Of a DNA stretch of 64,000 nucleotides, positions 932-63,939 are shown one piece after another (position 1 is the stretch's first letter; each line of letters opens with the position of its first letter). The stretch comes from a virus. The notes beneath the pieces are model-generated. The model worked only from the letters and a program-made list of their open reading frames with translations. It did not search any database and was not told the DNA's origin. The stretch lies in the IMG/VR virus record IMGVR_UViG_3300045988_084534, positions 32,001-96,000 of that record. One strand, written 5' to 3'. A program made the position numbers and the translations under genes.

Positions 932-1435
932 ATGATTATATGTGGTATTGATGCAAGCACCTCTTGCACTGGATGGAGCATTTTCAAAGATGACAAATTG
1001 ATTACATATGGTGCGATTAAGCCGCATGGTGAAGATTGGCGCGGCAGAGTTATGGATTTAACTATGGCGCTTTCAGAGATATTCAAAATCCATAGACCAA
1101 ATATTATATATATGGAAGATGTGCCAATGAAAAAAGGCTCTTTGACCATTGAAAAGCTAGGAGCGGTTCAAGGTGTTGTATTGGCATTATGTGCGGCATG
1201 TAAAATCAAGCCATGCTTCTTGTTGCCAAGTAAATGGCGTAGCGACCTTAATCTTTTTGATGGAACTAGAGCTGGTCTACAAAGAGATGTTCTGAAGAAA
1301 AAAGCCATAGAGATGGTGAATGAGGAATTTGGATTAAATTTAACATGGGTTGCTCCAAGTAGCAAAAAAAACGACGATGATATAGCAGAGTCCATTTTGA
1401 TTGCTTACTCACAGATAAAACAAAGGGGAGTGTGA
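932..1435 (+). CDS. RuvC-like Holliday junction resolvase
   Basis: 167 aa. N-terminal 'ICGIDASTSCTGWSIF' is a RuvC-type first catalytic Asp motif. Also 'IIYMEDV' and the C-terminal acidic 'NDDDIAESILIAY'. Confidence 0.7.
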   Translation: MIICGIDASTSCTGWSIFKDDKLITYGAIKPHGEDWRGRVMDLTMALSEIFKIHRPNIIYMEDVPMKKGSLTIEKLGAVQGVVLALCAACKIKPCFLLPSKWRSDLNLFDGTRAGLQRDVLKKKAIEMVNEEFGLNLTWVAPSSKKNDDDIAESILIAYSQIKQRGV

Positions 1436-1438
1436 TGA

Positions 1439-1730
1439 ATGGCAAAAACAAACAGTAATTACTCCATCATTGCTGATGTTGAGCTTGAGCTAAAAAATGC
1501 GCAAAAACAATTAAACGAGTTTAGGAAAGATAATAAATTAAATCTTGACTTAAATGTTAAAGGTTCTAAAAGTTTATCTGACGCAGATGGTAAAGTAAAA
1601 AAATTAGATGATTCTACCAGAGACCTAGTTTTTACATATCAGCAATTTAGACAGGTGCTAGATTCTGTTGTTGATGTTACTGGCAAAATGGTGGAACAAG
1701 TCAAGACGCTGGATGCGGCACAGACAGAGT
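1439..1730 (+). CDS. tail tape measure protein, exon 1 of 5
   Basis: ATG at 1439 right after the resolvase gene. Translation '...VKTLDAAQTE' continues in exon 2. The exon ends after U of GAGU, which can pair with GCUC (1740-1743) as a G.U-closed P1. Confidence 0.7.
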
Positions 1731-2997
1731 TAATCTTTAGCTCGCTTTCGTTGTAAAACGATTGAAAAATAACCCATTGAATTGCTGGAAACCCCTTAGA
1801 GCTGTCATGCTAAAGCGGAGAGATGAAATACGCTCAAACGTAAATGCTTGAAAAGTTGATAGATTGGGCAATCAGCAGCTAAGACCCGAATAGGGTAAAG
1901 TTCAACGACTATCCCGTAAGGGAGTACACTACAAGCGATTGGTAGTGGAAGTGGTGGGTATCCTAATAGGATAAAGATATAGTCTGGTCTTATAAGAAAT
2001 TATAAGCGCGTAAGCGAATGTAGGAGTAGCGTCCTTTTAATGTAATGATAAGACAAATATTCATAAGGAGGTGAATATGTGTATAGAAGAAAAATAGATT
2101 ATAATTTAGTAAAATCTGAGTTTGATGAGCGTGGATACGAATTATTATCTACAGAATATGTGAATAATGTTACGAAATTGCAATATGTTTGCCCAAAACA
2201 CAGAAACAAAGGTATTTTAGAAACTACATTTGCTAATTTTACAAAGGGAAAAGGATGCCCATATTGTGCAAATAGAGTAAAAAAGACACAAGAAGAATAT
2301 GAGGCAGAGTTAGCAATAAAAAAGCCAACAATTAAAGTAATTGGGAAATATATAAATCTTAAAACAAAGATAGAACATGAATGTGTTGTCTGTGGCTATC
2401 GTTGGGATGTATTGCCAGATAATATGCTACATATGTCAAACGGTTGTCCTAAATGCGGGAAAAGAGCACCATTGAATCAAAATGAGTTAATAAATAGGAT
2501 TGCTAAAATAGATGATTCTATTGAGGTTGTTGGAGAATATTATAATACTGCAACGAAAATGTCTTTTAGGTGTAAGAAATGTGGAAATGTTTGGGAGGCT
2601 AAACCAAATAATATATTGAATGGCAAAGGATGTCCAAATTGCAAATCGTCTAAAGGAGAAAAAGAGGTTGCACGCATTCTTGATGAACTCGATGTATTGT
2701 ATAAACCACAATTTAAGTTTCAGGATTGTAAAGATGAATTGCCACTTCCATTTGACTTTTATCTTCCAGATTATAATATTTGCATAGAATATGATGGTGG
2801 ACAACATTATAAGCCATGCACATTCGGTGGTATTTCTAAAGAGCAAGCAAGAGTGAATTTTGAGCTTGCTAAGAAACATGATAGAATCAAAGATGCGTAT
2901 TGCAAACAACACAACATAAAATTAGTAAGAATCCCGTATTGGGAATATAAAAATATAAGAAATATATTATCATTACATTTACATTAAACACAAAACG
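1731..2997 (+). mobile_element. group I intron (TMP intron 1) carrying a Vsr-like/zinc-ribbon endonuclease ORF
   Basis: Starts UAAUC after the exon U and ends in G (..AAAACG). GNRA hairpin cgtt-gtaa-aacg follows the guide sequence. Core 'gaattgctggaaacccc' (1779-), 'gattgggcaatcagcagc' (1862-), P7 strands 'gttcaacgactatcc' (1900-) and 'agatatagtc' (~1976-). A 9-bp stem (2039-2047 with 2971-2979) closes the ORF loop. Removal restores the TMP frame. Confidence 0.75.
2079..2987 (+). CDS. intron-encoded homing endonuclease, PD-(D/E)XK Vsr-like (EDxHD-type) with three Cys4 zinc-ribbon modules
   Basis: GTG start 6 nt after AAGGAGGTG. Three repeats of 'C..C/H...(W)...GCP.C'. The C-terminal 'PFDFYLPDYNICIEYDGGQHY...IKLVRIPY' resembles Vsr/EDxHD-type nucleases. 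Confidence 0.65.
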   Translation: MYRRKIDYNLVKSEFDERGYELLSTEYVNNVTKLQYVCPKHRNKGILETTFANFTKGKGCPYCANRVKKTQEEYEAELAIKKPTIKVIGKYINLKTKIEHECVVCGYRWDVLPDNMLHMSNGCPKCGKRAPLNQNELINRIAKIDDSIEVVGEYYNTATKMSFRCKKCGNVWEAKPNNILNGKGCPNCKSSKGEKEVARILDELDVLYKPQFKFQDCKDELPLPFDFYLPDYNICIEYDGGQHYKPCTFGGISKEQARVNFELAKKHDRIKDAYCKQHNIKLVRIPYWEYKNIRNILSLHLH

Positions 2998-3086
2998 TTA
3001 AGAAGGTCTCTGACCTGTCTGGTAAAGCATTAGACGCTTATCAAGACAAATTATCAAAAGCCGGTAAGACGGTAGGACGAACTGGT
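2998..3086 (+). CDS. tail tape measure protein, exon 2 of 5
   Basis: Reads (F)KKVSDLSGKALDAYQDKLSKAGKTVGRTG in the frame set by exon 1 (1 nt + 2 nt codon). Ends after ACUGGU, which pairs perfectly with GCCAGU (3104-3109). Confidence 0.7.
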
Positions 3087-3423
3087 AAACCAAATCGGTC
3101 TGAGCCAGTATGTACAGATGGTAAATGTGCATAAGGAACAGCCCCTAAACCCTTGAAAGCCTCAAGAGCCTTATCACTACAACATGAGGATGAGATATGC
3201 CTGAGTGTGAATGATTCATTAGTAATGAACAATTAGTGCGAAAGCAGAAAGACGATAAGGATGATTCCATGGGCGAAAGACCTAAAGAATCTGTCATAAA
3301 TAATGTATGATAAAAGGGCAGATTGGGCGCGAAGCCGTGATGAGCGGTGTGTCAACAGAATATACAGGGCGGCCCTCCAAATATATAGGGTGAAGAATTA
3401 TTCGGGAAGGGATTGAAAACCTC

Positions 3424-3452
3424 TTGACAAATTATCTAAGATGTGCTATTGT
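3424..3452 (+). promoter_or_regulatory. sigma70/sigmaA-type promoter inside TMP intron 2
   Basis: TTGACA (3424-3429), 17-nt spacer, TGc-TATTGT extended -10 (3444-3452). Followed by GAGG (3476-3479) 8 nt before the ATG at 3488. Confidence 0.55.
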
Positions 3453-3487
3453 ATAGATACAATAAATAAAGAAACGAGGTATCTATT

Positions 3488-3703
3488 ATGTTCTTGTCTG
3501 TTATGACCTTTATTATCATTGGCCCGATGCTTGTTATCTCTGGGATTGTCGCGCTGATTAAGGAGCTTTCAAACAGCGGGAAAGGCGATAATCAGAGTCA
3601 GTCGAATCAGAATAAATATAACATTCGCTATGAAACGCCGGAAGAAGAAGAGCGGCGAATCAATGAATGGGGTTATGATGATGAAAGGTGGGGCAGATTG
3701 TGA
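3488..3703 (+). CDS. intron-borne small membrane protein (one N-terminal TM helix, acidic/basic tail)
   Basis: 71 aa: 'MFLSVMTFIIIGPMLVISGIVALI' followed by a hydrophilic tail. It has its own promoter and RBS. No nuclease motif. Confidence 0.55.
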   Translation: MFLSVMTFIIIGPMLVISGIVALIKELSNSGKGDNQSQSNQNKYNIRYETPEEEERRINEWGYDDERWGRL

Positions 3704-3784
3704 TTTTTGTATATATCTGGTTTGCTATTATGATTGTATTTACCATTCTTTGTGTATTTGATTTTAGATAATTTGTAATCACTG

Positions 3785-3997
3785 TCAGAAATGATTTCTG
3801 CTGCATCGCAGTTCAGAAAATCAGGTTTCAATGATGAAGATGCGGCGACATTAGCCAAGGTTGCGGCGCAGTATCAGAACGTAGCCGACACAGCGGTATC
3901 AGCAGAAGATGCAGCAGCTTCTATTACTTCTCAGATTCGTGCATTTGGTGAAGATGCGGCATTTGCTACTACTGTAATTGATGCTTACAACGAGGTT
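3785..3997 (+). CDS. tail tape measure protein, exon 3 of 5
   Basis: SEMISAASQFRKSGFNDEDAATLAKVAAQYQNVAD...VIDAYNEV is typical of the TMP conserved core. Ends after GAGGUU, which pairs with GACCUC (4008-4013). Confidence 0.75.
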
Positions 3998-5245
3998 TAA
4001 TTTTGTAGACCTCTATAAACAGGGTGAATTGCTGGAAACCTAAACTCATATAGAGCATGGTAATCAGCAGCCAAGATTGAGATGAAATGCTCAATAAGGT
4101 TCAGAGACTATCGAAAGCATAATAAATAAAAGTGGGAATATACCACTTGAAGTGAGTAGAGTACACAGTAGTGCTAACTGTGGAAGTGCCCTGCCCTCAT
4201 ATTATATGAGGTGATGATATAGTCCATTCCTATGAGAAATCATAGGCGAGAACTCTATAATAGGTATAATATTTGAAAGAAAAGAAGTTTTGTGTATATG
4301 TGCATATGTTTCCAAATGGGAAAAGATACATTGGTATAACCAGCAAGCGCCCAAATGACAGATGGGAGAGAGGTAGTGGGTATCGTGATAGCTTACCAAT
4401 GCGTAATGCAATAAATAAATATGGATGGGATAATATAGAGCACATAATACTATTTGATGGATTGACACAAGAAGAGGCTTGCAAAAAGGAAGTTGAACTT
4501 ATAGAGAAATATAAAACAAACATTCATAAATACGGCAATCAATATGGATACAACTTAACTGATGGAGGCGAAGGCACTACTGGGCATAAGGTGTCAGAAG
4601 AAAGAAAAGAAATTATGCGCCAACTAAAATTGGGTAAAGTTGGAAAGGATTGTCCAAATTCTCGCCCGATTGTTTGTGATGGGGTTGAGTATGAGAGTTT
4701 AACTGACTTTAAGAATAAGAATAATCATCCAAAAGGCAATATCGCAGCTTGGTTAAATGGTACAGTAGGAATGCCAGAATATTGGTATAATAAACGACTA
4801 CATTATAAAGATTTGGGATTCGATGTTGTTAAATTAGCAGACAATAAAAACCGTGCTAAAAAAGTTGTTGCAGATGGAATTATGTTTGATACGTTAGAAG
4901 ATTGTGCTAATTATTTTGGAGTAGATGCACCAAGGATATGTAATTATCTAAATGGTAAAAATGCTACACCAGACAGAATCATAAATGCAGGACTTAGATA
5001 TGAAGATGAAGATGTGCATGAATTTAAAAGGCAAACTAAAAGAAGTAAGAATAAAATAAAATGTGAAATAGATGGCATTCAATTTAATACACAAGCAGAC
5101 TTAGCGAAATATATAAAAGAAAATAAGGCGACTTTATGGGCTTGGTTTGCTGGGAAAAATCCAATGCCAGAGAAATATGTAAAGAGAGGAATAAAAATTA
5201 TAGAGTAATCTCGGCTCAACTTAGCAAATTGAGTCAAATATCAAG
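3998..5245 (+). mobile_element. group I intron (TMP intron 3) carrying a GIY-YIG endonuclease ORF
   Basis: Starts UAAUU and ends in G (..AUCAAG). P10 is UUUGU/GCAAA. Core 'gaattgctggaaacc' (4026-), P7 strands 'ggttcagagactatcg' and 'gatgatatagtcc', and P9-like hairpin cctatga-gaaa-tcatagg. Confidence 0.75.
4273..5208 (+). CDS. intron-encoded GIY-YIG homing endonuclease
   Basis: 311 aa. N-terminal 'FCVYVHMFPNGKRYIGITSKRPNDRWERGSGY...NAINKYGWDNIEH' is a GIY-(10)-YIG module with the conserved R and N. Long basic C-terminal DNA-binding region. The TTG start is uncertain. Confidence 0.7.
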   Translation: MKEKKFCVYVHMFPNGKRYIGITSKRPNDRWERGSGYRDSLPMRNAINKYGWDNIEHIILFDGLTQEEACKKEVELIEKYKTNIHKYGNQYGYNLTDGGEGTTGHKVSEERKEIMRQLKLGKVGKDCPNSRPIVCDGVEYESLTDFKNKNNHPKGNIAAWLNGTVGMPEYWYNKRLHYKDLGFDVVKLADNKNRAKKVVADGIMFDTLEDCANYFGVDAPRICNYLNGKNATPDRIINAGLRYEDEDVHEFKRQTKRSKNKIKCEIDGIQFNTQADLAKYIKENKATLWAWFAGKNPMPEKYVKRGIKIIE

Positions 5246-5709
5246 GCAAACAATTTTAGTGTAGGCACTAATGATTTAGCAAGTGCCATGGAAGTTGCGT
5301 CTAGTGGGCTTGCAACATATGGGAATGAATTTTCTGAGGTACTAGGATTAGTAACAGCAGGCACAGAAATTATGCAAGGGAGATCATTGCAGGTTGCACG
5401 CGGGTTATCAACGATTGCCTCCCGCATTGCAAAAAATCAAGATGCCCTTGCAGAATATGGAATAGCAGTTCAAGATGCCAATGGCAATCTAAAGAGCACA
5501 TATGATGTTCTTGCAGAATTAAAGCCAAAATGGGATCAAATGACCGATGCTCAAAGAGTAGCATTGGGTGACACTCTTGCTGGAACCAATCAATACAAAG
5601 TCCTTGCCGCCGTACTCCAGAATTTTGAGCACGCAACAGCGGCGACTGAAACAGCCCTTAATTCCGCTGGCTCTGCGGCACAGGAAAACGCGAAGTACCT
5701 AGAGAGCCT
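5246..5709 (+). CDS. tail tape measure protein, exon 4 of 5
   Basis: ANNFSVGTNDLASAMEVASSGL...GRSLQVARGLSTIASRI...AKYLES(L) continues the TMP core. Ends after GAGCCU, which pairs with GGGUUC (5720-5725). Confidence 0.75.
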
Positions 5710-6033
5710 TAACAAAATGGGGTTCTATAAACAAGTCTAATTGCGGGAACACCCTTAGAGCCTTATCAACCAAGTTTTAATAGGAATATTAAGATGGCGA
5801 GGTTAGTGACCGAGGTATGGTAAAATTGATAAGGATTGGGCAACCAGACGCAACCAAGCGTCCAGAACGGACGAAGGCTCATCGACCATCCCTTAATATG
5901 GGAGTAGGAGAAAGTGCTAGTCTCCGAAATGGCTTGACTTGCATAAGCAAGTATGATATGGTCAGTTCTCATATGAAAATATGAGCGGTAGATGTCTACG
6001 ACTAAGATTTAGCACATCTTAGTGAACATAAAG
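5710..6033 (+). mobile_element. group I intron (TMP intron 4), ORF-less
   Basis: 324 nt. Starts UAACA and ends in G (..CAUAAAG). Core 'taattgcgggaacacccttagagccttatcaacc' (5738-), 'gattgggcaaccagacgc', and P7-like 'catcgaccatccc' / 'gtgctagtctcc'. Removal joins CU+C (Leu) and restores the frame. Confidence 0.7.
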
Positions 6034-9000
6034 CGAAGCCCGCGAACAATCCATCAAAGCAGAATTTGAGGATTTTGCAAATCGCGTATTATCCAAAGAA
6101 GTAGTAGCAGGATTTTATGATGCTACTGAAGCGGCATTACAATTTATTAACACAGATTTTGGTGCAGCCACCACGAGAATCATAGGCACAACAACGGCTA
6201 TTACAAGTCTGGTTGGTATTCTTGGCACAATGGGCGCAAAATTGGTGCTTGTTGGTAAACAGCTACAGGCGGCTGGTGCGGCTAATGGCGTTCTTGGATT
6301 CCTTACTACGCCTAAGACACTGCTTATTATAGCTGGCGTGGTAGCCGCTATTGCTGGCTTAGTTGAGGTTATTAAGTCGGTTGAAAAAGCTCAATATGAG
6401 GCAAATCATGCTTTTGAGATAGCAAATCAAAAATTATCTGAGACACAAAACGAAATTAAGTCTACTGAGGAAAATTTACAAAGTTATAAAAATTCTCTTA
6501 AAGAACTTAATGATGTGGCTGAAAAAGATAGAGGTCTTGCTTGGCAACAAGAACGTGCTGAAATTGAATTAAATATTCAAAGTACAGAGACATACTTAAA
6601 GCTGTTAGAGCAAAAAGCCAAGTTAGAAGCGCAAACGGCGTATGAATCTAAGTTGCCAACTGGTTATACACTTGCAGGCAACCTAAACGAAAATAAATAT
6701 AAGACCGAAGATTATTTTGGCGACTATTTTGCACCTGGCAATTCCCAAGTACAGTTGTCTATGGAGCAAGCTGGTGTTATAACGGCTGTGTATGACAGCG
6801 AATACGAGGCATTATCTAACATCGTTTTAGCACTTGCAAATGCTACAGATGAGCGCTATAGATACATCGAGGCAGAAGATTTAGCTCAACTTGAAGGCAA
6901 ATCAACTGAAGAACAAATTCAGATTATGACTGATTTGTTAGGTAATTTGGGAATCAAGTTGTCCGCTACCACTGAAACGGCTACGCAATCTTTTGCCGCA
7001 ATGGATAATCTTGCCAATAAATCTGGAGAACTTTCAACTAAAGAGAAAGATTTGGCGCAACGATACTTAGACCTGTATCGAAATATTGTTATCCTTGGTG
7101 TGGCAACCGATGAACAAACAAACAGCTATATTCAACTATTGGCTAGAATGTCTGCATTTGACTTGGAGACGGCTAGCACAACAGAAAAGATTAGTTGGTT
7201 AGCAAATGCTTTTGGTATAACAGCTAGTGAATCTGCAAATCTATTATATGCAACTGGTCAATTATCTCTGATTCAGGCTCAAGCTGCACGCGACATGGTA
7301 CAACTTTCTAACGGTATGTGGGCTGCTAAATCTGCGTGTAAACAACTTGACGATGGGACATGGGAATTAAAAGAAAATTTAGACGAAACCGACGATTCAG
7401 CAGAAGACTTGTCCGATTCTCTCAATGCCTATCAAAAATCCATCAAGCAAGTAACCGATGATGAAAAAGCATTTGTCAATTCGCTATTTGATATGAATGG
7501 CAATTTGACCAAAGCGGCTCAACAAGCTCTTACCGCTGATAGTGCTATGGCGAGTTATGCACAGAAAATCCTAGAGGCTCAACAAGCACAAACGCAGTCT
7601 GATTATTCTAATTTAATACTTCAAATTGGTAAGGTTGGAGAAGCAGCTTACGTTAGTAGTAATAGATTACAGTCTTTGATTGCTAGCATTCCGGGCGTTA
7701 CTTCTAGTACATGGTCTGCTGAAAATCAGGAATCTGTGATGCGCCGATTGTTTAACAAGCAAACGGGCAAGAACTGGAAACAAGACGCGGCAGCATATAG
7801 TGAATGGTCATCGAATTATTTGTTAAATTTGAGCCAAAAAAAATATGAAGAACGCTTAAAAGAGCTACAAAATCAAGCAAATGCTATATCTTCATTTGTT
7901 CCATCTACAGGTGGCGGAGGTGGCTCATCTTCTACAACATCTCAAAAATCCCCGGCTCAAATTGCGGCAGAAGCGGCAACGAAAGCGGCTAAGTATAGAC
8001 TAGATGCCTTACAAGATGAGCTTGATGCGCTCAACGATGAAAAATCGGCACTAGAAGATGAAATTCAGCGAATCCAAGATGAGGTCAAGGCTGAATATCA
8101 GGCTGAGATTGATATTCTCAACGATAAGAAAGAGGCTATCCAAGAGGCATATGAGGCATGGGAAGAAGATGCTGATGCTGTACTTGATAGACTCAAAGCA
8201 GAAAAGGACGCTATTCAAGCAGTCATTGACGCTATTGACAAAGAGAAAGAACAACTTGAAGCGGCGACCGCCTATGCTACTGAATATGCCTCTAGGCAGA
8301 TTGATGAAATTGACGCGCGGCTAGATGAGCTAGATGCCCGTGAAGCCGAAATCAATAAAAAATATGATGACGAGCTAGACAAGCTAAAAGCGACCAATAA
8401 AGAGCTGGACAAGCAAATTGAGCGCGAGAAGCTGCTACAAAATCTAGCATCTGCTAAAAATAAGAAAAAGCGGGTATATTCGGCGCAACAGGGTTATATC
8501 CTAGTTGATGATATTGCCGCAATTTCTAAAGCACAGGCAGAGCTTGATAAATTTGACCGTCAGCAAAAACAATCTCTTGAGAAACAGGAGATTGAAAATA
8601 AACGCAAACAAGAGCTGTTAGCATCTGGTGTCGAGGCTGAACGCGCGGCATTAGAAGAGCAGAAAAAGCTCTGGGAAGAATATAGTAAAAAATGGTCTAG
8701 TATTGTTTCTGACTATGAGTTCAAGCAAAATAGACTAGCTTATATTCAGCGATATGGTAAGGCTATTGAGCAACAGAACTGGCAACAGCGCAATAGAACG
8801 GTTGACCAAGCTACCAAAGAATACGCTGATATTATGGCGCGGCTATTGGCTGAACAAGAGCGGATGGCGGCTAAAGAGGCTGAAATTGCGGCTCAAGAGG
8901 CGGCAATGGACGAAGCCAGAATTGCCAATCAGAAAGCAACTGCCGCTATTGAAAAGCAAATCAGCGACCTACAAGATGAAATGGTGGCGGCTCAAGAAGC

Positions 9001-9652
9001 CAGAACTCGCAAGCAAGTAGAATCTCTAAATGCACTGGCTGATGCTATCGAGGACGCTCAAAGGCGTGTTAATCAAGCGCAGAAAGATTATGACTCCGCA
9101 CAAGAAGATGAGGGCGCATATGATGTAGATAAGCCGCGTGTTCTAAAGCAAGTGGGCGGCAAAGCTCCCGATGATGCCAAGGTAGGCGATTATATTGCTA
9201 CGGCAGATGGCATTTATCATATTACTGGCGGATACGCTGGACATTGGAAGAGTAGACGAGTGAGCGGTACTGAGGGGCGTTCCGACTTAAATAATGCGAG
9301 AGCAGCGGCTAATTGGCTAGTTAAAAATGGCTATTTGACCGCTGGCGAATTTGGCTATAGGAGCGGAACAACATCTGCCACACCGGGCTTACATATGCTC
9401 GGTGAAAATGGCCCAGAGCTAGGCGTGTTAAGTCGCGGCGATGGGGTCATCCCAGCCGATATAACCAGAAACCTGATGAACATAGGCAAGAATCCAGAGA
9501 AATTTGCAAATGCCGCTGTTGCCAGAAATGGCGGCGATATTATCATGCAAGGCGTTACTTTGGCATTCCCCAATGTGCGTGATGGCAGTGATGCCGCAAC
9601 ATTCACTAAGAATTTTGTCAACTTGGCGCATCAATATGCCTATAAGCGATAA
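6034..9652 (+). CDS. tail tape measure protein, exon 5 of 5
   Basis: Reads (L)EAREQSIKAEFEDFANRVL..., then TM segments (GAKLVLVGKQ...IIAGVVAAIAGL), long coiled-coil E/K/A/Q-rich regions, a GGGGGSSS linker and the C-terminal 'GLHMLGENGPELGVL'. The five exons total 4,677 nt, i.e. 1,558 aa plus stop. Confidence 0.8.
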
Positions 9653-16203: not shown

Positions 16204-16406
16204 ATGACAAATATTGAATTGGCAAAAAAGCACGAAGATGTAGCTAAGAAATATAAGACAGTATATATGTGGGGCTGTTTTGGTCATCCAGTGACCGAGG
16301 CGATTATCAGAGAAAAGGCGGCGCAATATCCTAGTTGGTATACAGCGGCAAAGCAGAGAGAACTAAGAAAGCTGGTCGGCAAGGGATATTTTGCATTTGA
16401 CTGTGT
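16204..16406 (+). CDS. NlpC/P60-like cysteine-peptidase lysin, exon 1 (3' boundary provisional)
   Basis: '...VYMWGCFGHPVT...GKGYFAFDCV' contains the candidate catalytic Cys. The frame stops 28 nt later, while the rest of the domain lies at 18.06-18.56 kb. The best P1 is UGUGU/GCGCA. Confidence 0.5.
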
Positions 16407-18084
16407 AAATCTCACTGACTTTAGTGCGCAATAATAGTAATGTTATTGTGTGTTTATTTGAATTGCTGGAAACCCCTTAGAGACATATCAACCACAACGT
16501 AGCTATGAAATATGGGCAAGCGTGATGGTTTGAAAATGATATAGATTGGGCAATCAGCAGCGAAGCTCCGAATAGGAGAACGTTCAACGACTATCCTGTT
16601 AGAGGGAGTACAACGCAAACGATTGGCGTTGGAAGCGGATAAGACCCTATTATATAGGGTGATGATATAGTCTCATCTCATATGAAAGTATGAGGAAAAT
16701 TGTTTGAGTTCACTTATAATACTATAAAAGCAAGGAGGTGGGTATGTGGACAAAAACAGACAACATTACAAGATGTCATTGCTTAAATGGTGTGAATCGA
16801 ATAATAGTAATTTGGTTTACGAATGGGATGAAGCAAATGAAATGGCTATGAACGAGATTGGGTCAAGTAGTGGAATAAAAGTGAAATGGATATGCTCTAG
16901 GTGTGGTTTTCATTTTGAGCAAAGACCTTCAGATAGGGTGAGGGGGCATGGTTGTCCAAAGTGTGCTAGAAAATCTCATTCAAGCGTCCCCGAAACGATA
17001 TGTTATTTGGCTATCAAGCAGTATTTTTCAGATGCGATACATGGATATAAAACCGATTGGCTTGGACGTAAAGAATTGGACATCTTTATCCCATCTATTA
17101 GTGTTGGCATTGAATATGATGGAAATTCTTGGCATAATAAATCCAGAAAACGAACAGATAATGACAAGACGTGGCTATGCGCCCAGCATAATATCTTGAT
17201 CTATCGTATAAGAGAAAACGGATGCGAACCAATGGACGACGAGTCAAATAATATTTATTACAAGCCAAGCAAACAATACAATGCTCTTAAGTATTCTATT
17301 ATAGATGTACTAATGAGGCTTGGACATAATAATGTTGCTTTTGATGACTGGGAGTCGCTTATTAATAAGTCTAAATGTGAATTTTCCAGTATTGAAAGAA
17401 GTAAATCTATTGGTGTAATAAATCCAGAATTTAGTGCAAAATGGGATTACGACAAAAATTATCCTTTAACGCCATATGATATATTGGCTCATTCCAATCA
17501 TAAAGTATGGTTAAGATGTGATAAAGGACATTTGTATAAAAGAGCGCCAAACTATTCAAATCAAAAAGAATGCCCCATATGTATAAATAAAATTGTGCTT
17601 GAGGGCTATAATGATTTGGCAACAATAAGACCAGATTTGGCGTTGGATTGGAATTATGATAGAAATGGCGAATTAAAGCCAACGGAAATAACGTTCGGTT
17701 CTAATCGACGTATTTGGTGGAAATGCCATGCTTGCGGAAACGAATTTCAATCATCTCCAAATGCTAGAAAAGATAATATGGGACATTGTTCAAAATGTGT
17801 GTTCACCAATGGCAATGAAACATTATCAAAAAACAAAGCGGTTAATAATAGTCTTGCTGAGTTTTATCCAGAAATCGCAAAAGAATGGGATTATAACAAT
17901 AATGAAAGAACGCCAGACAATGTTGCAAGGATGTCTGGATTGGAAGCGTGGTGGATTTGTTCAAACGGTCATTCTTGGAAGGCTAGTGTTCATAGTCGAA
18001 CGCATGATGGGAAAAAGTGTCCATATTGTAAACAAACTCAAACAATAAACTGCTAGGCGTAGTGAACCTAGTTGAAAGAAAATG
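16407..18084 (+). mobile_element. group I intron in the lysin gene carrying a Vsr-like/DUF4379-type endonuclease ORF (ends +/- ~20 nt)
   Basis: The core is near-identical to TMP intron 1: 'gaattgctggaaaccccttagag' (16460-), 'gattgggcaatcagcagc' (16544-), 'gttcaacgactatcc' (16582-), 'gatgatatagtct' (~16663). A 12-bp stem (16699-16710 with 18035-18046) closes the ORF loop. Ends in G (..GAAAAUG). P10 is CUUUA/UAAAG. Confidence 0.65.
16746..18056 (+). CDS. intron-encoded homing endonuclease, PD-(D/E)XK Vsr-like domain plus four zinc-ribbon (DUF4379-like) modules
   Basis: 436 aa. GTG start after AAGGAGGTGGG. Nuclease motif 'ELDIFIPSISVGIEYDGNSWHN'. Repeats 'W(D/N)Y..N....P..I...S...(V/I)WW.C..GH.(W/F)......R.....CP.C'. 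Confidence 0.65.
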   Translation: MDKNRQHYKMSLLKWCESNNSNLVYEWDEANEMAMNEIGSSSGIKVKWICSRCGFHFEQRPSDRVRGHGCPKCARKSHSSVPETICYLAIKQYFSDAIHGYKTDWLGRKELDIFIPSISVGIEYDGNSWHNKSRKRTDNDKTWLCAQHNILIYRIRENGCEPMDDESNNIYYKPSKQYNALKYSIIDVLMRLGHNNVAFDDWESLINKSKCEFSSIERSKSIGVINPEFSAKWDYDKNYPLTPYDILAHSNHKVWLRCDKGHLYKRAPNYSNQKECPICINKIVLEGYNDLATIRPDLALDWNYDRNGELKPTEITFGSNRRIWWKCHACGNEFQSSPNARKDNMGHCSKCVFTNGNETLSKNKAVNNSLAEFYPEIAKEWDYNNNERTPDNVARMSGLEAWWICSNGHSWKASVHSRTHDGKKCPYCKQTQTINC

Positions 18085-18565
18085 TAAAGGAATTTTATGG
18101 GGCTGGAATGGTAATGCTAGGTCATATACAGGCGGCGCAAGATATGCTAGTAATGGCGTACCAGATGTTAGCGCAGATGGCATGATTGGCAAATGTAAGA
18201 ATGTATCAACCACTGGCTGGGATAAGCTGGAAATTGGCGAAGGGCTATGGATGCCCGGACACTGGGGTCTATATATTGGCAATGGTCTAGCAGTAGAATG
18301 CACGCCTATTTGGAAGAATGGTGTGCAAATCACGGCTGTTGGCAACATTGGTAATAAAGCAGGATATAATAGCCGCAAATGGACTAAACATGGAAAATTA
18401 CCATATATTACCTATGTTCAGCCAGAGCCAGATACAGATGATAAGCATGAGGCGAATAAAGCCAAAGTAAAGGCGCGATTCGGCTTTACAGACAGCACTA
18501 TTAAATGGCTTGATTCTTATAAATATAATAAAGACATCATGGACAAGCTGGCTAATAAAGGCTAA
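18085..18565 (+). CDS. NlpC/P60-like cysteine-peptidase lysin, exon 2 (5' boundary provisional)
   Basis: 'KGILWGWNGNARSYTGGARYASNGVPDVSADGMI...GLWMPGHWGLYIGNGLAVECTP' contains the His-containing half of an NlpC/P60-type fold. The frame is compatible with exon 1 (GU+U gives Val). Confidence 0.5.
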
Positions 18566-30784: not shown

Positions 30785-33309
30785 TTATTCACATTTTGTC
30801 CAGCCACATGACTTACAAATTTTGCAACCGCCCTCAAACATAACGGGTTCACCGCATTCAGGGCATACCTCTGTTGAAATTGTGGCTAGTGCATTGCTCA
30901 ACTTTTTAATGCTGTCTGTTGCTTTATTAGTAGCCTCTCTTAGATTCTTAGTCACATTAACCACATCATCCTCTTTATCATCTAGTTCACTCTGCATCTC
31001 ATTATACATATCTACTAGAGCATTACCAATAGCCATAGGACAACAAGACCCCTTACTGGTATCATGGTGAGTTGCCTTGCGAGTAGCATAAGATGGGCAT
31101 ACACCAGTTGAATCAAGCTGGTCTTTGATGGTCATAATATCCACACCAGCGCGGCATAGTAGACTGACCATGCGGCTTAGACCTGTCATGAAATTTGCAC
31201 AATTTCCAGTAATAAAGATTTTACCATTACGACGCAACACAAGCAAACCGCTTGGAACTGTAAAACAATAAGATTTGCCGTCGATTGGTTTATAATCTTC
31301 AATAGTTGCAGTTGATAAGCCATGTACGTTTTGGGTTGTCCAACGCACTCTATAACTATCTTGAATATTTTGTGTTCCGTTGTTCAATGAAATTGTAGCT
31401 CTAAAACCAAGCCTTGTCAATGCAAACTGGATAAAATCAGCTTCGTGCTTTTTTGACGTATAATAAGAACCAAGTCGGTTTCCTTCGCCAACAGAGCCAT
31501 CCCAATATACACACTCATCCACAATACATTTTAATTGCTCATCATTACAAGCATACCATTTTGGTGTAAATTGCTTGTCAATAAACCATTGTTTAACACT
31601 TGGAATTGGATGAATATAAAACACGGTATATTCGGTATTGTTGATGTTTTTTTCAGTCCATCCAATATCACAATTTGTTAGTAGTTGACGAATACGAATT
31701 TTCTTTCTATCTTTTTTTACGTTAATAACAATTTTATTTCCATCAAATGTACCATCCGCATAAATTGCAACAAGTAGTCTAATTATCTCATTACTAAGCG
31801 GAATACCATTTGTATTCATAGAGAAGGTGGTTGGAATATGACGATTTTTAGAACCAGCCATGAAATCTTTTACAGTAATAATTTCATGGGTTAATTTGCT
31901 TCTAATTCCAGACATATATTTTGCATAATTTTTATACAAATACATTCTATGATCTTCTGAAAGAACCATATCCAATCCAGTTGTATTGTGGAAATATTTC
32001 ATATTCTCAACATTGTCATTAACAACGTAAGAAATTGGATAGGTTAAAGAAGCCGTTCCATCTTCATTGTACTGCAACACTTGTTCATACTCATCCATAT
32101 TATATTCGCTAATTTTTTTCCACTCGATACCATTAAAATATTCAGTATCTTTGTCTACGCATCCACCAGTCGAGCCTTTATTGAAATATACCTCTTGTAG
32201 ATTGCCGTCAATGGGGTCAAAGAATGCTAGAACATGAAGTGAGCCGCATCCTGTCTGGATTTTGCGCTTTTTGCCAATCAGGTCATTGCTTGGTTCAATG
32301 ATTGAGCCGCGAGGTAGAATGGGGGATGTGGATTCAGGCTTGGTTTCATTATCTTTCTTATTGTCAGTAAGCAAGATTCCCTGACGGATTGCATTAGGTC
32401 TAAAGATTGTACATCCCTTAATGCCTAGCTTCCAGCACTGCATATAGATGTCCTTGACTTCATCAAACGATGCTTCAGTAGGCACATTGATTGTCTTGCT
32501 AACGCTCATGTCGGTATATTTGCTGATAATAGCAAGCATAGCTACATGGTCATCGACAGACATATTAAGCGCAGTTGGGAAAATATCATGCTCGTCAAAA
32601 TCAAGTTGCTCACCCTTATCCTTTAGCTTATGATAGAGATAATAAGCATAATCCATCATCTTGACGATTTTTACGTCCTTATCGTCCTGACCCCCAATTT
32701 TTACCTTGCGGTCATAGCTAAGAGAGAAGATTGGCTCAATGCCACTAGAGCAGTTGTTACCAAATACCATAGAGATCGTGCCGCACGGTGCAACCGCTTG
32801 AATCTTGGCGTTACGAATACCATATTCAGCCATCTCGGCAATGACATCATGTTCTAGCACAGATTTGACATATGTGTTATCTGCGTGTTTATCTGGCTCA
32901 CATAGAGGGAAACAGCCCTTTTCTTTAGCAAGCTGAACTGACGCATAATATTCTGCATTAGTAATCATCTGCATTAGAGATTCAACATAATCTCTTGCTT
33001 CCTGACTATCATACTTCATGCCAAGCATAGCCAGCATATCTGCTAAACCAGTAATGCCAATACCAATGGTGCGCATACTCTTCTGATAATTTTCGTAAAT
33101 CTTGTCAGGGAATTTATTTACATCAATAATATCATCAAGCATACGGACTGCAATAGAGATTGTATTTCTTAGAGCATCAGTATCAAGATGTGCTTGCTTG
33201 GTAAATGGATTCTTTACAAAATTGTGTAGGAACAATGAGCCAAGATTACAAGCACCGCCATATTGCGATGGGTCTGTTGCATTGATTGTTCCTGCTAGAT
33301 ATTCAGCGC
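30785..33309 (-). CDS. nrdJ: class II (B12-dependent) ribonucleotide reductase, exon 2 (contains an intein)
   Basis: Begins (C)AEYLAGTINATDPSQYGGACNLGSLFLHNF. Contains 'MRTIGIGITGLADML' and 'GCTIFR'. C-terminal zinc ribbon 'CPECGEPVMFEGGCKICKSCGW'. An upstream in-frame TGA at 33310-33312 shows the ORF cannot simply continue. Confidence 0.8.
31202..32161 (-). mobile_element. LAGLIDADG intein (320 aa) within nrdJ
   Basis: The extein context 'FNKGSTGG|C...ITGN|CANFMTGLSRMVSLL' restores the conserved RNR 'GGCANF' block. The intein has an N-terminal Cys, block B 'LSEDHR', two LAGLIDADG motifs ('LLVAIYADGTF', 'VYWDGSVGEG') and a C-terminal 'GN' followed by +1 Cys. Confidence 0.8.
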
Positions 33310-33479
33310 CTCACACAATGCGTATCAAATACAGTTCGCATCGTGCGCTAGACTATCGCATCCCCTTGGGGTCTCCTCGCTTAGTCGTTCAGGCTGGCAT
33401 TACCCTTGCCCCCTGTAGCTGTGTATTCAGCGTCCAAGTCAATCAGAGGAGATTTTACATCCGCACGTTTATATGGCTA
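33310..33479 (-). mobile_element. compact ORF-less group I intron in nrdJ
   Basis: 170 nt. 5' exon ..CCGU, intron UAGCC...GUGUGAG, 3' exon GCGCUG. P1 is CCGU/GCGG. P3 is UCUCCUC/GAGGAGA. P7 is GACUA/UAGUC, flanking the P8 hairpin CCCC-AA-GGGG. P9 is AUGCG/CGCAU. Splicing recreates 'CSNP-C-AEY'. Confidence 0.75.
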
Positions 33480-34302
33480 ACGGATTACTACAAACAATTC
33501 TTTCTACATACCATGCAGGATTGCGATTATTGGCATTATCCTCATAGAATACGCCCGGTTCACCATTATCATATGCCATCTGCATGATTTCGTTCCAAAT
33601 ATCACGAGCTGGCACTAGCTTGGTAAATTGCTTATCCCACTTATCTGGCGGCAGTTTATTGCCCTTCTCGTCATAGATAGGCCAATGTAGTTTAACTTGA
33701 CCATTCTCAATGACAAGATTCATAAAAGCATCATCTACAACAACAGATAGGTTGAAATGATTTAGCCGTCCTTCTGTAGCTGATTTAGCATGAATAAATT
33801 CAAGAATGTCAGGATGATATACACTGAGCATACCCATGTTTGCACCGCGCCTTGAACCTTGCTGCACAGTAGCCGTCTGAGCATTAAATACATCCATGAA
33901 ACTAACTGGACCAGATGCAATAGCATCATTACGGGTTCTATAACCATTAGGCGCTAGATTGCTAAAAGCATAACCAATTCCGCCACCAGCTTTATGTGTC
34001 ATAGCGCCTAGCTTAACCGCATTAAAAATCTGCTCCATGCTATTACCAATAATAGGTGCTACAAAGCAGTTATTGAGAGTTAGCTTTTCGCCAATACCGG
34101 CATTGCTCATGGTGCGTCCAGCAGGGAAGAAATAGCCTTCTTTCATAATACTGAAGAATCTATCTGCCCATTTAGGCGCGTTCCAATTTCCTTCGGCGGA
34201 TGCTACAAAATCAGCTACACGCCATAGCTGGTTATCATATGACTCACCGTCCTTTTGGTATCTATCTTTCCAGATAGATTCATATACCTCATTTACAAAC
34301 AA
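33480..34302 (-). CDS. nrdJ: class II ribonucleotide reductase, exon 1
   Basis: TTG start 8 nt after GGAGG. Contains 'NNCFVAPI', 'GGGIGYAFSNL' and 'SRRGANMGML', and ends '...ERIVCSNP' plus the first base of the Cys codon. Read-through gives a stop after 3 codons. Confidence 0.8.
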
Positions 34303-35644: not shown

Positions 35645-36457
35645 TTAATCATCATCTCCTTTAGACCATCTGTTGTTATATTTAGTAATTTGATAATTTA
35701 CTTGATTTTCAATATTTTTATTTTCGCAATCAATATCTTCTGGATAATTTAAGTAGGCAAATTCCCCATGCTCGTGATATGCAGCAATATCGTAGGCGTG
35801 TGCAGCTTCCTCTGGCGTTTCCCATCTACCAAGATAAACATTTTTCCCTTTTATCCTACAAAATGCAGAATACTTTTCGTCTGTTTTAGATACTCCCTTT
35901 AAGCCGATTTTATTTCTTTTATTTGGAGCAATATTTATATTGTTTTGTCGCGGAGTGCATTTCCTCATATTTTCTCTGCGATTATCGCCTTTATTTAGAT
36001 TTCTATGATCGTAATACGCCCCAAATAAAAACCTATGTAATCGCATACGCATTCGTTTGCCATCCGACAAATACCAATATCCAGAATCTTTTTCTTTTCC
36101 AATATGTGCAAATTTTAATCTATCAAGATTATCCGCATCAACAATAGTGTAATCGGACATATCATCGAGATAAATTTTTACATAATCTCCTTCTATTTCA
36201 TAATGATTAAAAGGTTTCTTTCTTGCTTTAGAAATATATTCGCTTCTGGCGCATCCGCATGATTTGCAACTTCCACTTCTTAATAATGCAAGCGTAAGAG
36301 TCCTAATTGTTTTATTTTCGCAATCGCATTGACAAATAACTCTGCGTTGGTAGCATTTCTTATTCCTTGTTTTAGAAAAATATTCTTTTGGCTCTGTTTC
36401 GTCTATGACTGTCCAGTGTGAATATTTATTGCCTATGACATCAAGTTTTTCAGCCAA
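35645..36457 (-). CDS. free-standing HNH homing endonuclease with AP2-type DNA-binding domain
   Basis: 270 aa. TTG start after AAGGAGA. 'MRLHRFLFGAYYDHRNLNKGDNRRENMRKCTPRQNN' is HNH-like. 'GLKGVSKTDEKYSAFCRIKGKNVYLGRWETPEEAAHAYDIAAYHEHGEFAYLNYP' is a typical AP2 domain. It overlaps the helicase 3' end by 25 nt. Confidence 0.7.
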   Translation of the reverse strand: MAEKLDVIGNKYSHWTVIDETEPKEYFSKTRNKKCYQRRVICQCDCENKTIRTLTLALLRSGSCKSCGCARSEYISKARKKPFNHYEIEGDYVKIYLDDMSDYTIVDADNLDRLKFAHIGKEKDSGYWYLSDGKRMRMRLHRFLFGAYYDHRNLNKGDNRRENMRKCTPRQNNINIAPNKRNKIGLKGVSKTDEKYSAFCRIKGKNVYLGRWETPEEAAHAYDIAAYHEHGEFAYLNYPEDIDCENKNIENQVNYQITKYNNRWSKGDDD

Positions 36458-44747: not shown

Positions 44748-45362
44748 TCAACCTCCTCGATTTAACATTGCTTTTTCTTTTGCGCTCAATCGCCATGTTG
44801 GTGTATATTCAGTGCAAAGATGCGTTCCCTTGATTTTCTTAACGTATATTAACTTAATCTCTGTATCTAACCTCTTTGATTTATTTTGCATACCATTATG
44901 TGTCTTTGTACTACCCTTTGTTTGTCCTACATATTCCCAATTATCAGCTTTATACATACATCCTTTTCTTGTTTCGTTCTCAATGACAAATGTTTCAAAT
45001 CCATGAACACGCACATGATACTGCGCTTCCCAATCTGCGGCGATTTGTTTGCGCCACATAGCTAAAATTTGCGTACCAAGATTAGGCAAGTTCTTTTCCA
45101 ACCGAAATACAGTATTGTTAATAATTGAGTTAAGCGCGACCCTCTTATTTTCTTTTGTCAAGCCGAAATAATCATCTCTGGCTTTTACAGCATATACAGC
45201 AGATGCACCAGAAATAATCCCAACTGTCTCGCCATCCAATTTTATAAGATAATGAATTTGCTGACCAAATGTGCCATGATTCGGTATATAATGTCTATCT
45301 CTAATTTCTTGATATTCTGGATTACTACGTTTACATCTTATCAGCTCTACATTATATTTCAT
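44748..45362 (-). CDS. DUF4338 (Druantia DruA-like domain) protein
   Basis: 204 aa. 'RHYIP..G..GQQIHYLIKLDGETVGIIS....Y.VKARDDYFG', 'NNTVFRLEKNLPNLGTQIL', 'ETFV' and 'GCMYKADNWEYVGQTKG' match my recollection of the DUF4338 consensus (HYLG...RD..iGW...NsRFLi...NLaS..L...ETFVd...GtcYkAaNW..vG.T.G). Confidence 0.5.
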   Translation of the reverse strand: MKYNVELIRCKRSNPEYQEIRDRHYIPNHGTFGQQIHYLIKLDGETVGIISGASAVYAVKARDDYFGLTKENKRVALNSIINNTVFRLEKNLPNLGTQILAMWRKQIAADWEAQYHVRVHGFETFVIENETRKGCMYKADNWEYVGQTKGSTKTHNGMQNKSKRLDTEIKLIYVKKIKGTHLCTEYTPTWRLSAKEKAMLNRGG

Positions 45363-62588: not shown

Positions 62589-62617
62589 ATCATTCAGCTC
62601 CTTCAGTTGATGGTTTA

Positions 62618-62646
62618 AGTATAACACCATAGTGAAGATTTGTCAA
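62618..62646 (-). promoter_or_regulatory. sigmaA-type promoter of the recombinase gene
   Basis: Minus strand: TTGACA-17 nt-(TGt)TATACT. Confidence 0.6.
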
Positions 62647-63855: not shown

Positions 63856-63939
63856 TGGTGCGGGATAGGGAACTCGAATCCCTACGCCTTGCGGCAACAG
63901 ATTTTAAGTCTATCGTGGCTGCCATTACACCAATCCCGC
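63856..63939 (-). tRNA. tRNA-Leu (anticodon UAA), type II with long variable arm, CCA encoded
   Basis: Hand-folded. Acceptor GCGGGAT/ATCCCGC. Anticodon arm ATAGA-CTTAAAA-TCTGT (anticodon TAA). Variable arm GCCGCAAGGC. T arm AGGGA-TTCGAGT-TCCCT. Discriminator A plus CCA. Confidence 0.8.

Follow-up and report, generated by a model that had tools for sequence, protein, structure and literature searches.

A group I intron in a phage tape-measure gene with a predicted promoter-driven cargo of small membrane proteins

We analyzed a 64,000-nucleotide (nt) stretch of viral DNA, positions 32,001 to 96,000 of IMG/VR record IMGVR_UViG_3300045988_084534 (hereafter the window, numbered from its first letter), and found that the second of the four introns in its tail tape-measure gene, at 3087-3784, has the defining structural features of a group I intron and an apparent cargo of small membrane-protein genes in place of a homing endonuclease. 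Our favored reading is that this intron belongs to a whole clade of gut phages, that its membrane-protein cassette is driven by a promoter inside the intron and gated by a hairpin at the ribosome-binding site (RBS), and that the encoded proteins act in conflict or exclusion; to this reading taken as a whole we give a probability of roughly 0.65. An earlier sequence-only reading had already proposed a group I intron with a promoter-driven small membrane protein as its cargo, and that headline is now backed by covariation in the ribozyme, by the ratio of nonsynonymous to synonymous substitution rates (dN/dS) in the cargo and by an essentially invariant promoter sequence. The gene concerned encodes a tail tape-measure protein (Pfam PhageMin_Tail) at 1439-9652. 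The phage is a ~100-kb siphophage related to Enterocloster phages, and its nearest isolated relatives are phages of Enterocloster bolteae. Coordinates of all features are collected in Table 1.

Group I core and splice junctions

The 5' part of the intron was aligned for 57 distinct copies (alignment A2, 428 columns), and helices were drawn by eye from compensatory changes and then counted. Because the structure was derived from the same sequences, the percentage of paired cells is inflated (96.3% of cells form standard pairs for 78 proposed pairs in the 57 relatives, versus 25-43% with the 3' partners slid by 1-3 columns), while the counts of double changes are less affected: two-sided changes occur in 34 pairs, versus 2-8 when slid. 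The covariation score is 0.273, versus at most 0.059 when slid, and none of 500 shuffles reaches the observed values. The ribozyme defined in this way, from P1 to P9, fills the first ~340 nt of the intron.

P3 and P7 cross to form the pseudoknot that is characteristic of group I introns, and P3, P7 and P8 each have compensatory changes of their own. For P3, the pairing GCCC/GGGC has become GCUC/GAGC in 7 of the 57 relatives, with no mismatch. P7 is paired in 100% of cells: the pair 3356:3404 is U-A in 47 relatives and C-G in 10, the pair 3360:3401 is A-U in 42, G-C in 14 and C-G in one, and G3358-C3403 is invariant beside the bulge at 3357. This arrangement of a C, a bulged A and a G-C pair resembles the Tetrahymena G-binding site (C262/A263/G264), and we take the sequences flanking P7, UCAACAGAAUAUAC and AAGAAUUAUUCG, to resemble the classical R and S elements.

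The peripheral helices of the P4-P6 domain covary as well, with a branched covarying set, including two helices capped by GNRA loops, replacing a simple P5. The consensus fold from RNAalifold also contains P4, helix a, the GNRA hairpins and P6/P6a. An alternative P5 pairing between GCCU[C]AA (3159-3165) and UUGGGC (3323-3328) would form a pseudoknot with P4, and both of its strands are invariant. Two local hairpins were considered and rejected, namely CUUGA/UCAAG at 3152-3167, because position 3163 varies freely among relatives, and GGC/GCC at 3326-3336, because relatives change GCCG...CGGU to GUCC...GGAU, a change that favors P6a. By its defining structural features, a canonical P5 excepted, 3087-3784 is established as a group I intron, and it is predicted to be self-splicing.

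The junctions had been placed in the sequence-only reading by a 6-base-pair (bp) P1 and a contiguous 5-bp P10 (UCUGA/UCAGA). Both pairings are confirmed in the sequence, and P1 covaries: its third pair is C-G in 51 relatives, U-A in four, A-U in one and G-C in one, with zero mismatches (n = 57). The guide region is conserved among relatives, as is the 3' splice junction (G/UCRGA, the slash marking the splice site). The wobble pair at the 5' splice site, U3086.G3104 in the window, is U.G in 50 of the 57 distinct relatives and C-G in the other seven (L012, L023, L040, L062, L068, L076 and L093; A2 column 10), in which the exon change is synonymous (GGT to GGC). Removing 3087-3784 keeps the reading frame (..KTVGRTG/SEMISAASQF..), and the spliced protein of the window aligns with Enterocloster phage PMBT24's intronless tape-measure protein as one colinear block, gapless at ..GRTG/SEMI.. 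(..ARTADEMV.. in PMBT24) and likewise at the three other tape-measure intron junctions. On our reading of the sequence no RBS lies upstream of the ATG at 3791, so the downstream part of the tape-measure protein is unlikely to be translated alone.

Cargo genes and their expression signals

The first cargo gene encodes a 71-amino-acid (aa) protein, and a dN/dS of 0.19-0.30 against relatives (median 0.26; Nei-Gojobori method, 40 pairs) indicates that this open reading frame (ORF) is a real gene under purifying selection. Its homologues form 26 clusters (59-93% identity, 66-96 aa), all of them unnamed and without Pfam domains, and a search of Pfam, PHROG and PDB sequences with the 71-aa protein gave no match. 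The sequence-only reading had described an N-terminal transmembrane (TM) helix with a charged tail and had proposed a structure prediction of the peptide; AlphaFold2, supplied with the family alignment, agrees with this description in giving a single confident helix at residues 2-30 (predicted local distance difference test, pLDDT, 84-92) and a charged tail of low confidence. That reading had also noted the lack of a nuclease motif, and nuclease families match neither the cargo of the window nor the cargos of 10 representative relatives. It was right about the length of the ORF at 3488-3703 but not in calling it the only one in the intron, as a 23-aa ORF at 3700-3771 is conserved in relatives. 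The putative GTG start codon of this second gene overlaps the stop codon of the first (GTGA), a Shine-Dalgarno sequence, AGGTGGGG, lies at 3686-3693, and we infer that the 23-aa hydrophobic peptide is translationally coupled to gene 1. Similar micro-ORFs are kept in relatives despite divergence of the DNA (MIFVVLWFIIMTAFVIACIKKD in L001 and ..FIIFWFVYIIWLIYACWKD in L041). In two 96-aa homologues (P0002 and P0003), the stop codon of the 71-aa ORF is changed from TGA to TGG and a hydrophobic extension follows, in a frame that differs from that of the 23-aa micro-ORF.

Among the copies of the intron with both ends located, there are 63 distinct cargo segments at the same site, each with 1-3 tandem, often overlapping genes for proteins of ~60-138 aa that have 1-4 N-terminal hydrophobic segments and a charged tail. 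Intron length is 590-1078 nt where the 3' splice site is reliably mapped. No endonuclease is found in the 63 distinct cargo segments, whose longest ORF is at most 138 aa where the 3' splice site is reliable; the survey of homologous introns that had been suggested with the sequence-only reading thus gives small membrane proteins throughout ~60 same-site variants. Two tail motifs recur, ..RRINEWG[YL]DD[ED]RWG[KR]L (type A) and ..AQ[DE]KYDN[DE]WGYI[KR], and share only N[ED]WGY (hhalign probability 41%). A profile of type A finds 14 representatives in 1.84 billion proteins (~10 small proteins of like kind), and a profile of the second type finds 48 clusters, both of the two contexts examined again being this tape-measure intron. 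Every homologue context examined lies between an N-terminal tape-measure fragment (~142 aa) and the C-terminal part (1100-1530 aa). All 12 of the 12 cargo proteins tested lack lysine and arginine ahead of the first TM segment and have 1-5 such residues among the 15 that follow it, which by the positive-inside rule predicts an N-out, C-in orientation with the tail in the cytoplasm.

In the predicted fold, the cargo is the loop of a 3' peripheral, P9.1-like closing stem. The sequence-only reading had put the ORF between the P7 strands, in a P8-type loop, and this placement is to be abandoned because P7 (3356-3362 and 3399-3404) and P8 (3372-3391) all lie upstream of the cargo. The closing stem measures 9-18 bp in most variants, with differing sequences (for example ACAUUUAUUUA/UAAAUAAAUGU, UUUAAUCUUUU/AAAAGAUUAAA and AUUUGUCUCAAUCU/GGAUUGGGACAAAU), and ~6 bp in one divergent clade.

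Ahead of the cargo genes is a putative sigma-A/sigma-70-type promoter that is the best match in 1400-6400 (10/12), with TGTG at 3442-3445 preceding the -10 box and an extended -10 TG at 3444-3445; transcription is predicted to start near A3459, ~7 nt past the -10 box. Across 51 distinct variants aligned on TTGACA, TTGAC is kept in 100% and the sixth base, A, in 96%; the TG two bases before the -10 box is kept in 98%, and the -10 box itself has T in 100%, A in 100%, T in 92%, two positions of any base and T in 100%. The 17-nt spacing is fixed, the spacer sequence is variable and changes in concert with the closing stem's 3' strand, and TTGACA is kept in divergent variants that have 10-13 extra nt between P9 and the hexamer. 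With invariant hexamer and -10 positions around a varying spacer, this is the profile of a sigma-A/sigma-70 extended -10 promoter and not that of a helix. The TTGACA-17-TGcTATTGT promoter sequence of the sequence-only reading is hereby confirmed, its hexamers being essentially invariant across the 51 variants, and the GAGG RBS proposed there is present at 3476-3479. No terminator was found in the promoter and terminator scan of the region. A minus-strand promoter at 3788-3761, considered as the antisense promoter of a type I antitoxin, was rejected because its -35 is the splice-site sequence and its -10 is, by eye, not kept in the 3' ends of relatives.

A leader hairpin at the RBS had escaped the sequence-only reading. 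Its 3' strand overlaps the last base of the GAGG and fills the spacer from RBS to AUG, and its 5' strand spans the predicted start. The hairpin of the window has a minimum free energy of -5.8 kcal/mol (z = -2.1). Over 35 distinct leaders z has a median of -2.5, and in 27 of them pairing begins 0-2 nt past the -10 box. Hairpins in a like place but of unrelated sequence occur in the variants, such as GUGGUAUU/GAUAUCAC, UUAACC/GGUUAA, GAAUCAACC/GGUUGAUU and ACACUC/GAGUGU. Since a start at A3459 lies inside the 5' strand, RNA made from the promoter would be unable to form the hairpin, and read-through precursor messenger RNA (pre-mRNA) would be able to do so.

Table 1. Features of the tape-measure intron and its surroundings, in window coordinates
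Feature	Position (strand)	Description
Tape-measure intron 1	1731-2997	Rfam group I match 1721-2006, then HNH/CapR-type endonuclease ORF 2079-2987
Tape-measure intron 2	3087-3784	698 nt; small membrane-protein cargo
Tape-measure intron 3	3998-5245	Rfam group I match 3988-4246, then GIY-YIG/I-TevI-like ORF 4273-5208
Tape-measure intron 4	~5717-6040	ORF-less; Rfam match ~5700-5985, 40 bits, under the gathering score of 50
P1 exon strand ACUGGU	3081-3086 (+)	Pairs with GCCAGU 3104-3109; 5' splice site after U3086
Internal guide sequence	3099-3109 (+)	P10 strand UCUGA 3099-3103, then contiguous P1 strand GCCAGU 3104-3109
P2 hairpin	3110-3116/3126-3132 (+)	Loop GAUGGUAAA; 5 of 7 pairs changed on both sides
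P3 5' strand GCCCC	3141-3145 (+)	Pairs with 3366-3370
P4-P6 domain	3146-3355 (+)	P4, branched P5-like extension, P6/P6a
P4 CCCUU/AAGGG	3150-3154/3314-3318	Invariant
Helix a	3169-3175/3254-3260	P5-like extension; 99.7% paired
Helix b	3182-3208	P5-like extension
Optional hairpin	3215-3229	P5-like extension
GNRA hairpin	3237-3246	P5-like extension
Helix g	3263-3267/3287-3291	Encloses second GNRA hairpin, 3271-3282
Second optional hairpin	3293-3311	P5-like extension
P6/P6a	3326-3353	After 7-nt junction (J4/6); covaries
P7 5' strand C[A]GAAUA	3356-3362 (+)	C3356-G3404 pair, A3357 bulged, G3358-C3403 the candidate G-binding pair
P3 3' strand AGGGC	3366-3370 (+)	Pairs with 3141-3145
P8 hairpin	3372-3376/3387-3391 (+)	Two pairs changed on both sides; 92% of cells pair
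P7 3' strand UAUUCG	3399-3404 (+)	Preceded by J8/7 GAAGAAU
P9 hairpin	3407-3411/3421-3425 (+)	Loop AUUGAAAAC; 5 of 5 pairs compensatory; 100% of cells pair
Putative sigma-A/sigma-70-type promoter	3424-3452 (+)	-35 TTGACA 3424-3429, 17-nt spacer, -10 TATTGT 3447-3452
Closing stem (P9.1-like) 5' strand ACAAAUUAUCUAAGAU	3427-3442 (+)	16 bp with 3761-3776; directly after P9; promoter spacer at the DNA level
Leader hairpin	3453-3486 (+)	AUAGAUAC 3453-3460 pairs with GUAUCUAU 3479-3486
RBS GAGG	3476-3479 (+)	8 nt before ATG
Cargo gene 1	3488-3703 (+)	71 aa; N-terminal TM helix, charged tail ending ..RRINEWGYDDERWGRL
Cargo gene 2	3700-3771 (+)	Putative start GTG 3700, to TAA 3771; 23-aa hydrophobic peptide MIFVYIWFAIMIVFTILCVFDFR
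Closing stem 3' strand AUUUUAGAUAAUUUGU	3761-3776 (+)	Overlaps end of cargo gene 2; 8 nt before 3' splice site
3' tail AAUCACUG	3777-3784 (+)	Terminal omega G3784; 3' splice site after it
P10 3' exon strand UCAGA	3785-3789 (+)	Pairs with UCUGA 3099-3103; tape-measure coding resumes (SEMISAAS..)
DruA (Druantia) domain protein	44748-45362 (-)	E = 2e-21; early/replication region
Tyrosine recombinase	61752-62630 (-)	Phage_integrase family, E = 1e-32; early/replication region
tRNA gene	63859-63939 (-)	Long variable arm; Rfam 49.4 bits

Distribution, proposed role and competing explanations

Exact-match scans with conserved intron sequences identified 18 viral contigs, 71 metagenome stretches and one contig of a metagenome-assembled genome; of the 71 metagenome stretches (21-nt core motif), 13 matched by chance in GC-rich contigs and were discarded. 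Among 185,579 species genomes, a single contig has the intron motif, and near and distant DNA searches of GenBank phage records gave no record with the intron. An IMG/VR search that was blind to the intron, having only the exon 3-4 protein as its query, returned 26 loci (71-86% identity), and the ribozyme core is present in all of those with enough upstream DNA (22 of 22); the intron's 3' end can still be seen in three truncated loci. Median identity to the window is 59% in the 5' exon, 89% in the ribozyme, 86% in the promoter, 49% in the cargo (unalignable), 64% in the last 30 nt of the intron and 69% in the 3' exon. Both ribozyme and promoter thus show higher conservation than the essential gene that the intron interrupts, and the payload turns over. 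Either a very strong constraint on the ribozyme or recent horizontal spread would fit this conservation of the chassis.

For the course of events we propose the following. Late read-through transcripts of the tape-measure operon would contain the whole intron, the closing stem would fold and bring the 3' splice site to the core, and the leader hairpin would pair the region from RBS to AUG and so exclude ribosomes during splicing. Host RNA polymerase at the internal promoter would start within the 5' strand of the hairpin, producing short transcripts that also lack the ribozyme and from which the membrane proteins would be translated. These would lie in the host membrane, N terminus outside and charged tail in the cytoplasm, and may block genome entry of superinfecting relatives, a step at which tape-measure proteins are known to be determinants; selection on the cargo, not homing, would then keep the intron in the clade.

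The cargo may function at the membrane in conflict between phages or between phage and host. Superinfection exclusion is the likeliest such role, and we put it forward tentatively and at less than even odds. We favor it because small tail-anchored membrane proteins are apparently made from a host-type promoter, because the cargo diversifies and changes copy number rapidly among similar phages, and because it is physically locked to the tape-measure gene, whose product is a sensitivity determinant in the Ltp and HK97 gp15 exclusion systems. It is possible, if rather doubtful, that the intron is a clade-fixed expression platform, with a constant chassis and an exchangeable array of membrane proteins for exclusion or competition linked to the tape-measure protein, and that the cargo maintains and perhaps spreads the intron.

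Several points weigh against the favored reading. Splicing, the start of transcription and the translation of the cargo are all inferred from sequence. The Rfam group I model RF00028 gives no match over 2950-3900, either at its gathering threshold or at E ≤ 10; as RF00028 is a single model and not the definition of the class, we do not take the failed match as exclusion from group I, and the atypical P4-P6 domain probably explains it. The P4/P5 core is itself atypical, and the invariance of P4 means that covariation neither supports nor refutes this helix. Group I introns nearly always have U.G at the 5' splice site, and the C-G pair in 7 of the 57 relatives is unusual for an active one. At the promoter, the -35 hexamer and spacer double as RNA helices (P9 and the closing stem), and their conservation is possibly in part at the RNA level. 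The leader hairpin of the window is weak (-5.8 kcal/mol) and covers a single base of the GAGG. Conservation of the C-terminal motifs is also partly explicable by constraints on the RNA, the last codons of the last ORF forming the closing stem and the ..RWG.. codons forming the Shine-Dalgarno sequence of the next ORF. With regard to function, Pfam, PHROG and PDB searches gave no similarity to any exclusion, holin or toxin family that is known, a tail predicted to be cytoplasmic is not an obvious topology for blocking entry from outside, and the cargo is tied to the tape-measure protein by no more than guilt by association.

We consider it unlikely that the cargo consists of holin- or antiholin-like lysis-timing proteins that are sited in the intron by happenstance. 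Their small size, 1-4 TM segments and highly charged C-terminal tail are the generic description of a holin, the two or three different proteins in some introns recall holin/antiholin pairs, and no clear holin was seen among the ORFs scanned near the endolysin-like gene at 18062-18565. However, matches to holin families do not rise above noise (Phage_holin_3_6 comes closest, E = 0.08, in one relative), and the cargo genes have a host-type promoter and are not adjacent to the lysin, unlike a late lysis cassette. Nor would an essential lysis gene usually show such extreme diversity, or vary in copy number, between close relatives.

A membrane toxin or host-takeover factor (type I toxin-like, a division inhibitor or an envelope modifier), kept for the benefit of the phage or as an addiction system of the intron, is improbable too. 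No toxin family matches, the cargo proteins are longer than typical type I toxins, and the conserved antisense promoter of such a system is absent, since the sole minus-strand candidate (3788-3761) is not kept in relatives. The case for a toxin is made by the combination of small hydrophobic peptides (22-33 aa in relatives and 23 aa in the window) and tail-anchored proteins with a promoter of their own, by SPbeta-type phages carrying type I toxins such as BsrG and YonT, and by repeated weak matches to YxzE-like ‘putative bacteriocin’ (E 0.015-0.03), all of which fall below the cut-off.

The promoter-like element could also be conserved solely as RNA, in P9 and the closing stem, with the cargo translated, if at all, from pre-mRNA or excised intron; we regard this as quite improbable. 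The TTG of the -35 is indeed part of the P9 3' strand, and the spacer doubles as the closing stem's 5' strand. Yet the hexamer stays invariant in divergent variants where P9 lies 10-13 nt further off, the T, A and final T of the -10 box are kept in 100% while the two positions before the final T vary freely, the spacing is fixed at 17 nt, and a leader hairpin exactly at the predicted start makes sense only given a promoter. Finally, the region may be no intron at all but split tape-measure genes with small genes between them, or the remnant of a decayed homing endonuclease, as might be thought from gene callers annotating a 142-aa N-terminal fragment and a separate 1420-1530-aa C-terminal part and from Rfam calling no intron at 3087-3784, but this is very improbable and is largely excluded by the comparative data: strong covariation of the group I core, P1 and P10 exactly at an in-frame junction, a spliced protein colinear with intronless PMBT24, a downstream part without an RBS, and a 71-aa family with conserved length, purifying selection, a TM helix and no nuclease motif or family match.

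Relation to known systems and genomic setting

The closest parallel to the favored reading, a promoter-driven and hairpin-gated cassette inside an intron, is the td intron of phage T4, in which the RBS hairpin of I-TevI forms only in read-through RNA because the promoter transcript starts too far downstream, and in which this hairpin bars ribosomes from the intron and is required for td to splice efficiently (PMC2988022). Both are group I introns in an essential phage gene, with an ORF that loops out from the ribozyme and a cargo whose 3' end overlaps intron structure, and both have an internal promoter just upstream of the ORF and an RBS hairpin, two elements that in our case are read from the sequence. 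The intron described here differs in encoding 1-3 small membrane proteins and not a GIY-YIG/HNH homing endonuclease, in being fixed in a clade and not sporadic, and in having a ribozyme that the Rfam group I model does not recognize. It also has a promoter of host sigma-A type and not a phage middle or late promoter, and the timing is therefore probably reversed relative to T4, with the cargo early and the host gene late. If correctly predicted, the regulatory design is a second case, open to direct test, of the I-TevI principle of T4, this time in a Gram-positive gut phage.

Group I introns with other kinds of cargo are known. In IStrons, such as CdISt1 of Clostridioides difficile, a group I intron is fused to IS200/IS605 transposon genes and the ribozyme silences the insertion phenotypically. 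IStrons share with the membrane-cargo intron a group I ribozyme in Clostridia and a cargo that is not a classical homing endonuclease, but TnpA and TnpB serve the mobility of the element, whereas here we find no recognizable DNA-acting domain and a single conserved site in a phage gene. The fungal mitochondrial rnl intron mL2449 encodes the ribosomal protein Rps3 and is retained as a stable host for this non-endonuclease gene. It is alike in stably housing such a gene in a group I intron, but Rps3 is a conserved, organellar housekeeping protein, while the cargo here is hypervariable, accessory, predicted to be promoter-driven and carried by a phage.

The sequence-only reading had called the cargo moron-like. 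This is apt insofar as it has its own putative promoter, but no terminator was found, the phage was not seen as a prophage and the cargo sits within a gene. The same mixture applies to a comparison with morons and exclusion proteins (HK97 gp15, T4 Imm and Sp, Sie2009 of lactococcal phages and Ltp of S. thermophilus), which are likewise small, membrane-anchored, expressed from their own promoter and located among late structural genes; the cargo has no sequence similarity to them, which counts against membership in those families but not against a like mode of action, and lies within a gene by way of the intron. A further comparison is with ORF-less introns mobilized in trans (cyanophage psbA, ‘collaborative homing’), which are also widespread with no endonuclease of their own. 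Neighboring introns of the window do encode HNH and GIY-YIG enzymes, and higher conservation of the ribozyme than of the exons is compatible with horizontal spread; in contrast to that system, relatives with the membrane-cargo intron are usually without other introns, and the intron is not empty. We know of no endonuclease that targets its site.

In the usual view, group I introns of phages are selfish elements, which either persist through homing by an encoded endonuclease or decay after losing it. The membrane-cargo intron lineage has no endonuclease, yet the intron is present in every close relative sampled. Should the payload benefit the phage, it would show that essential, highly expressed genes can accommodate accessory genes by way of domesticated introns that act as safe insertion sites and expression platforms, and were the platform reading true, this would be a second evolutionary strategy for viral group I introns. 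Non-endonuclease cargo in group I introns (IStrons, mitochondrial rps3) and control by promoter and hairpin (T4) are already known; in our literature searches we met no phage group I intron described as having membrane-protein cargo. A recent intron database considers only ORFs of at least 120 aa with a nuclease annotation (PMC11835236), and membrane-cargo introns are therefore missed by such catalogues.

The three other tape-measure introns of the window score 98.6, 82.7 and 40 bits with RF00028. The two endonuclease-bearing introns (1 and 3) are missing from the relatives whose full contexts were examined, and these relatives also lack the ORF-less fourth intron. In two loci (L056 and L070), a second intron with an endonuclease-like ORF of ~271 aa lies downstream of the membrane-cargo intron. 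Upstream neighbors in relatives are SPbeta-like tail genes (YomU, YomW, YomX and YomN) and a RuvC-like gene. In the published annotation of phage CB457P1, the tape-measure gene is split by an unrelated 157-aa ORF (PMC11035940). PMBT24 is reported as virulent (PMC11035940); the phage studied here, which encodes a tyrosine recombinase, may or may not be virulent.

Elsewhere in the window, another Rfam group I intron at 16397-16694 (93.9 bits) is followed by an HNH-like ORF at 16746-18056, and the two adjoin the endolysin-like domain protein at 18062-18565; a lysis or tail gene at 16397-18565 is probably also split by an intron. The large subunit of ribonucleotide reductase is spread over two ORFs (30785-33235 and 33469-34302), close to an HNH endonuclease ORF (35645-36457; region on the minus strand), which suggests further interruptions of intron or intein type.

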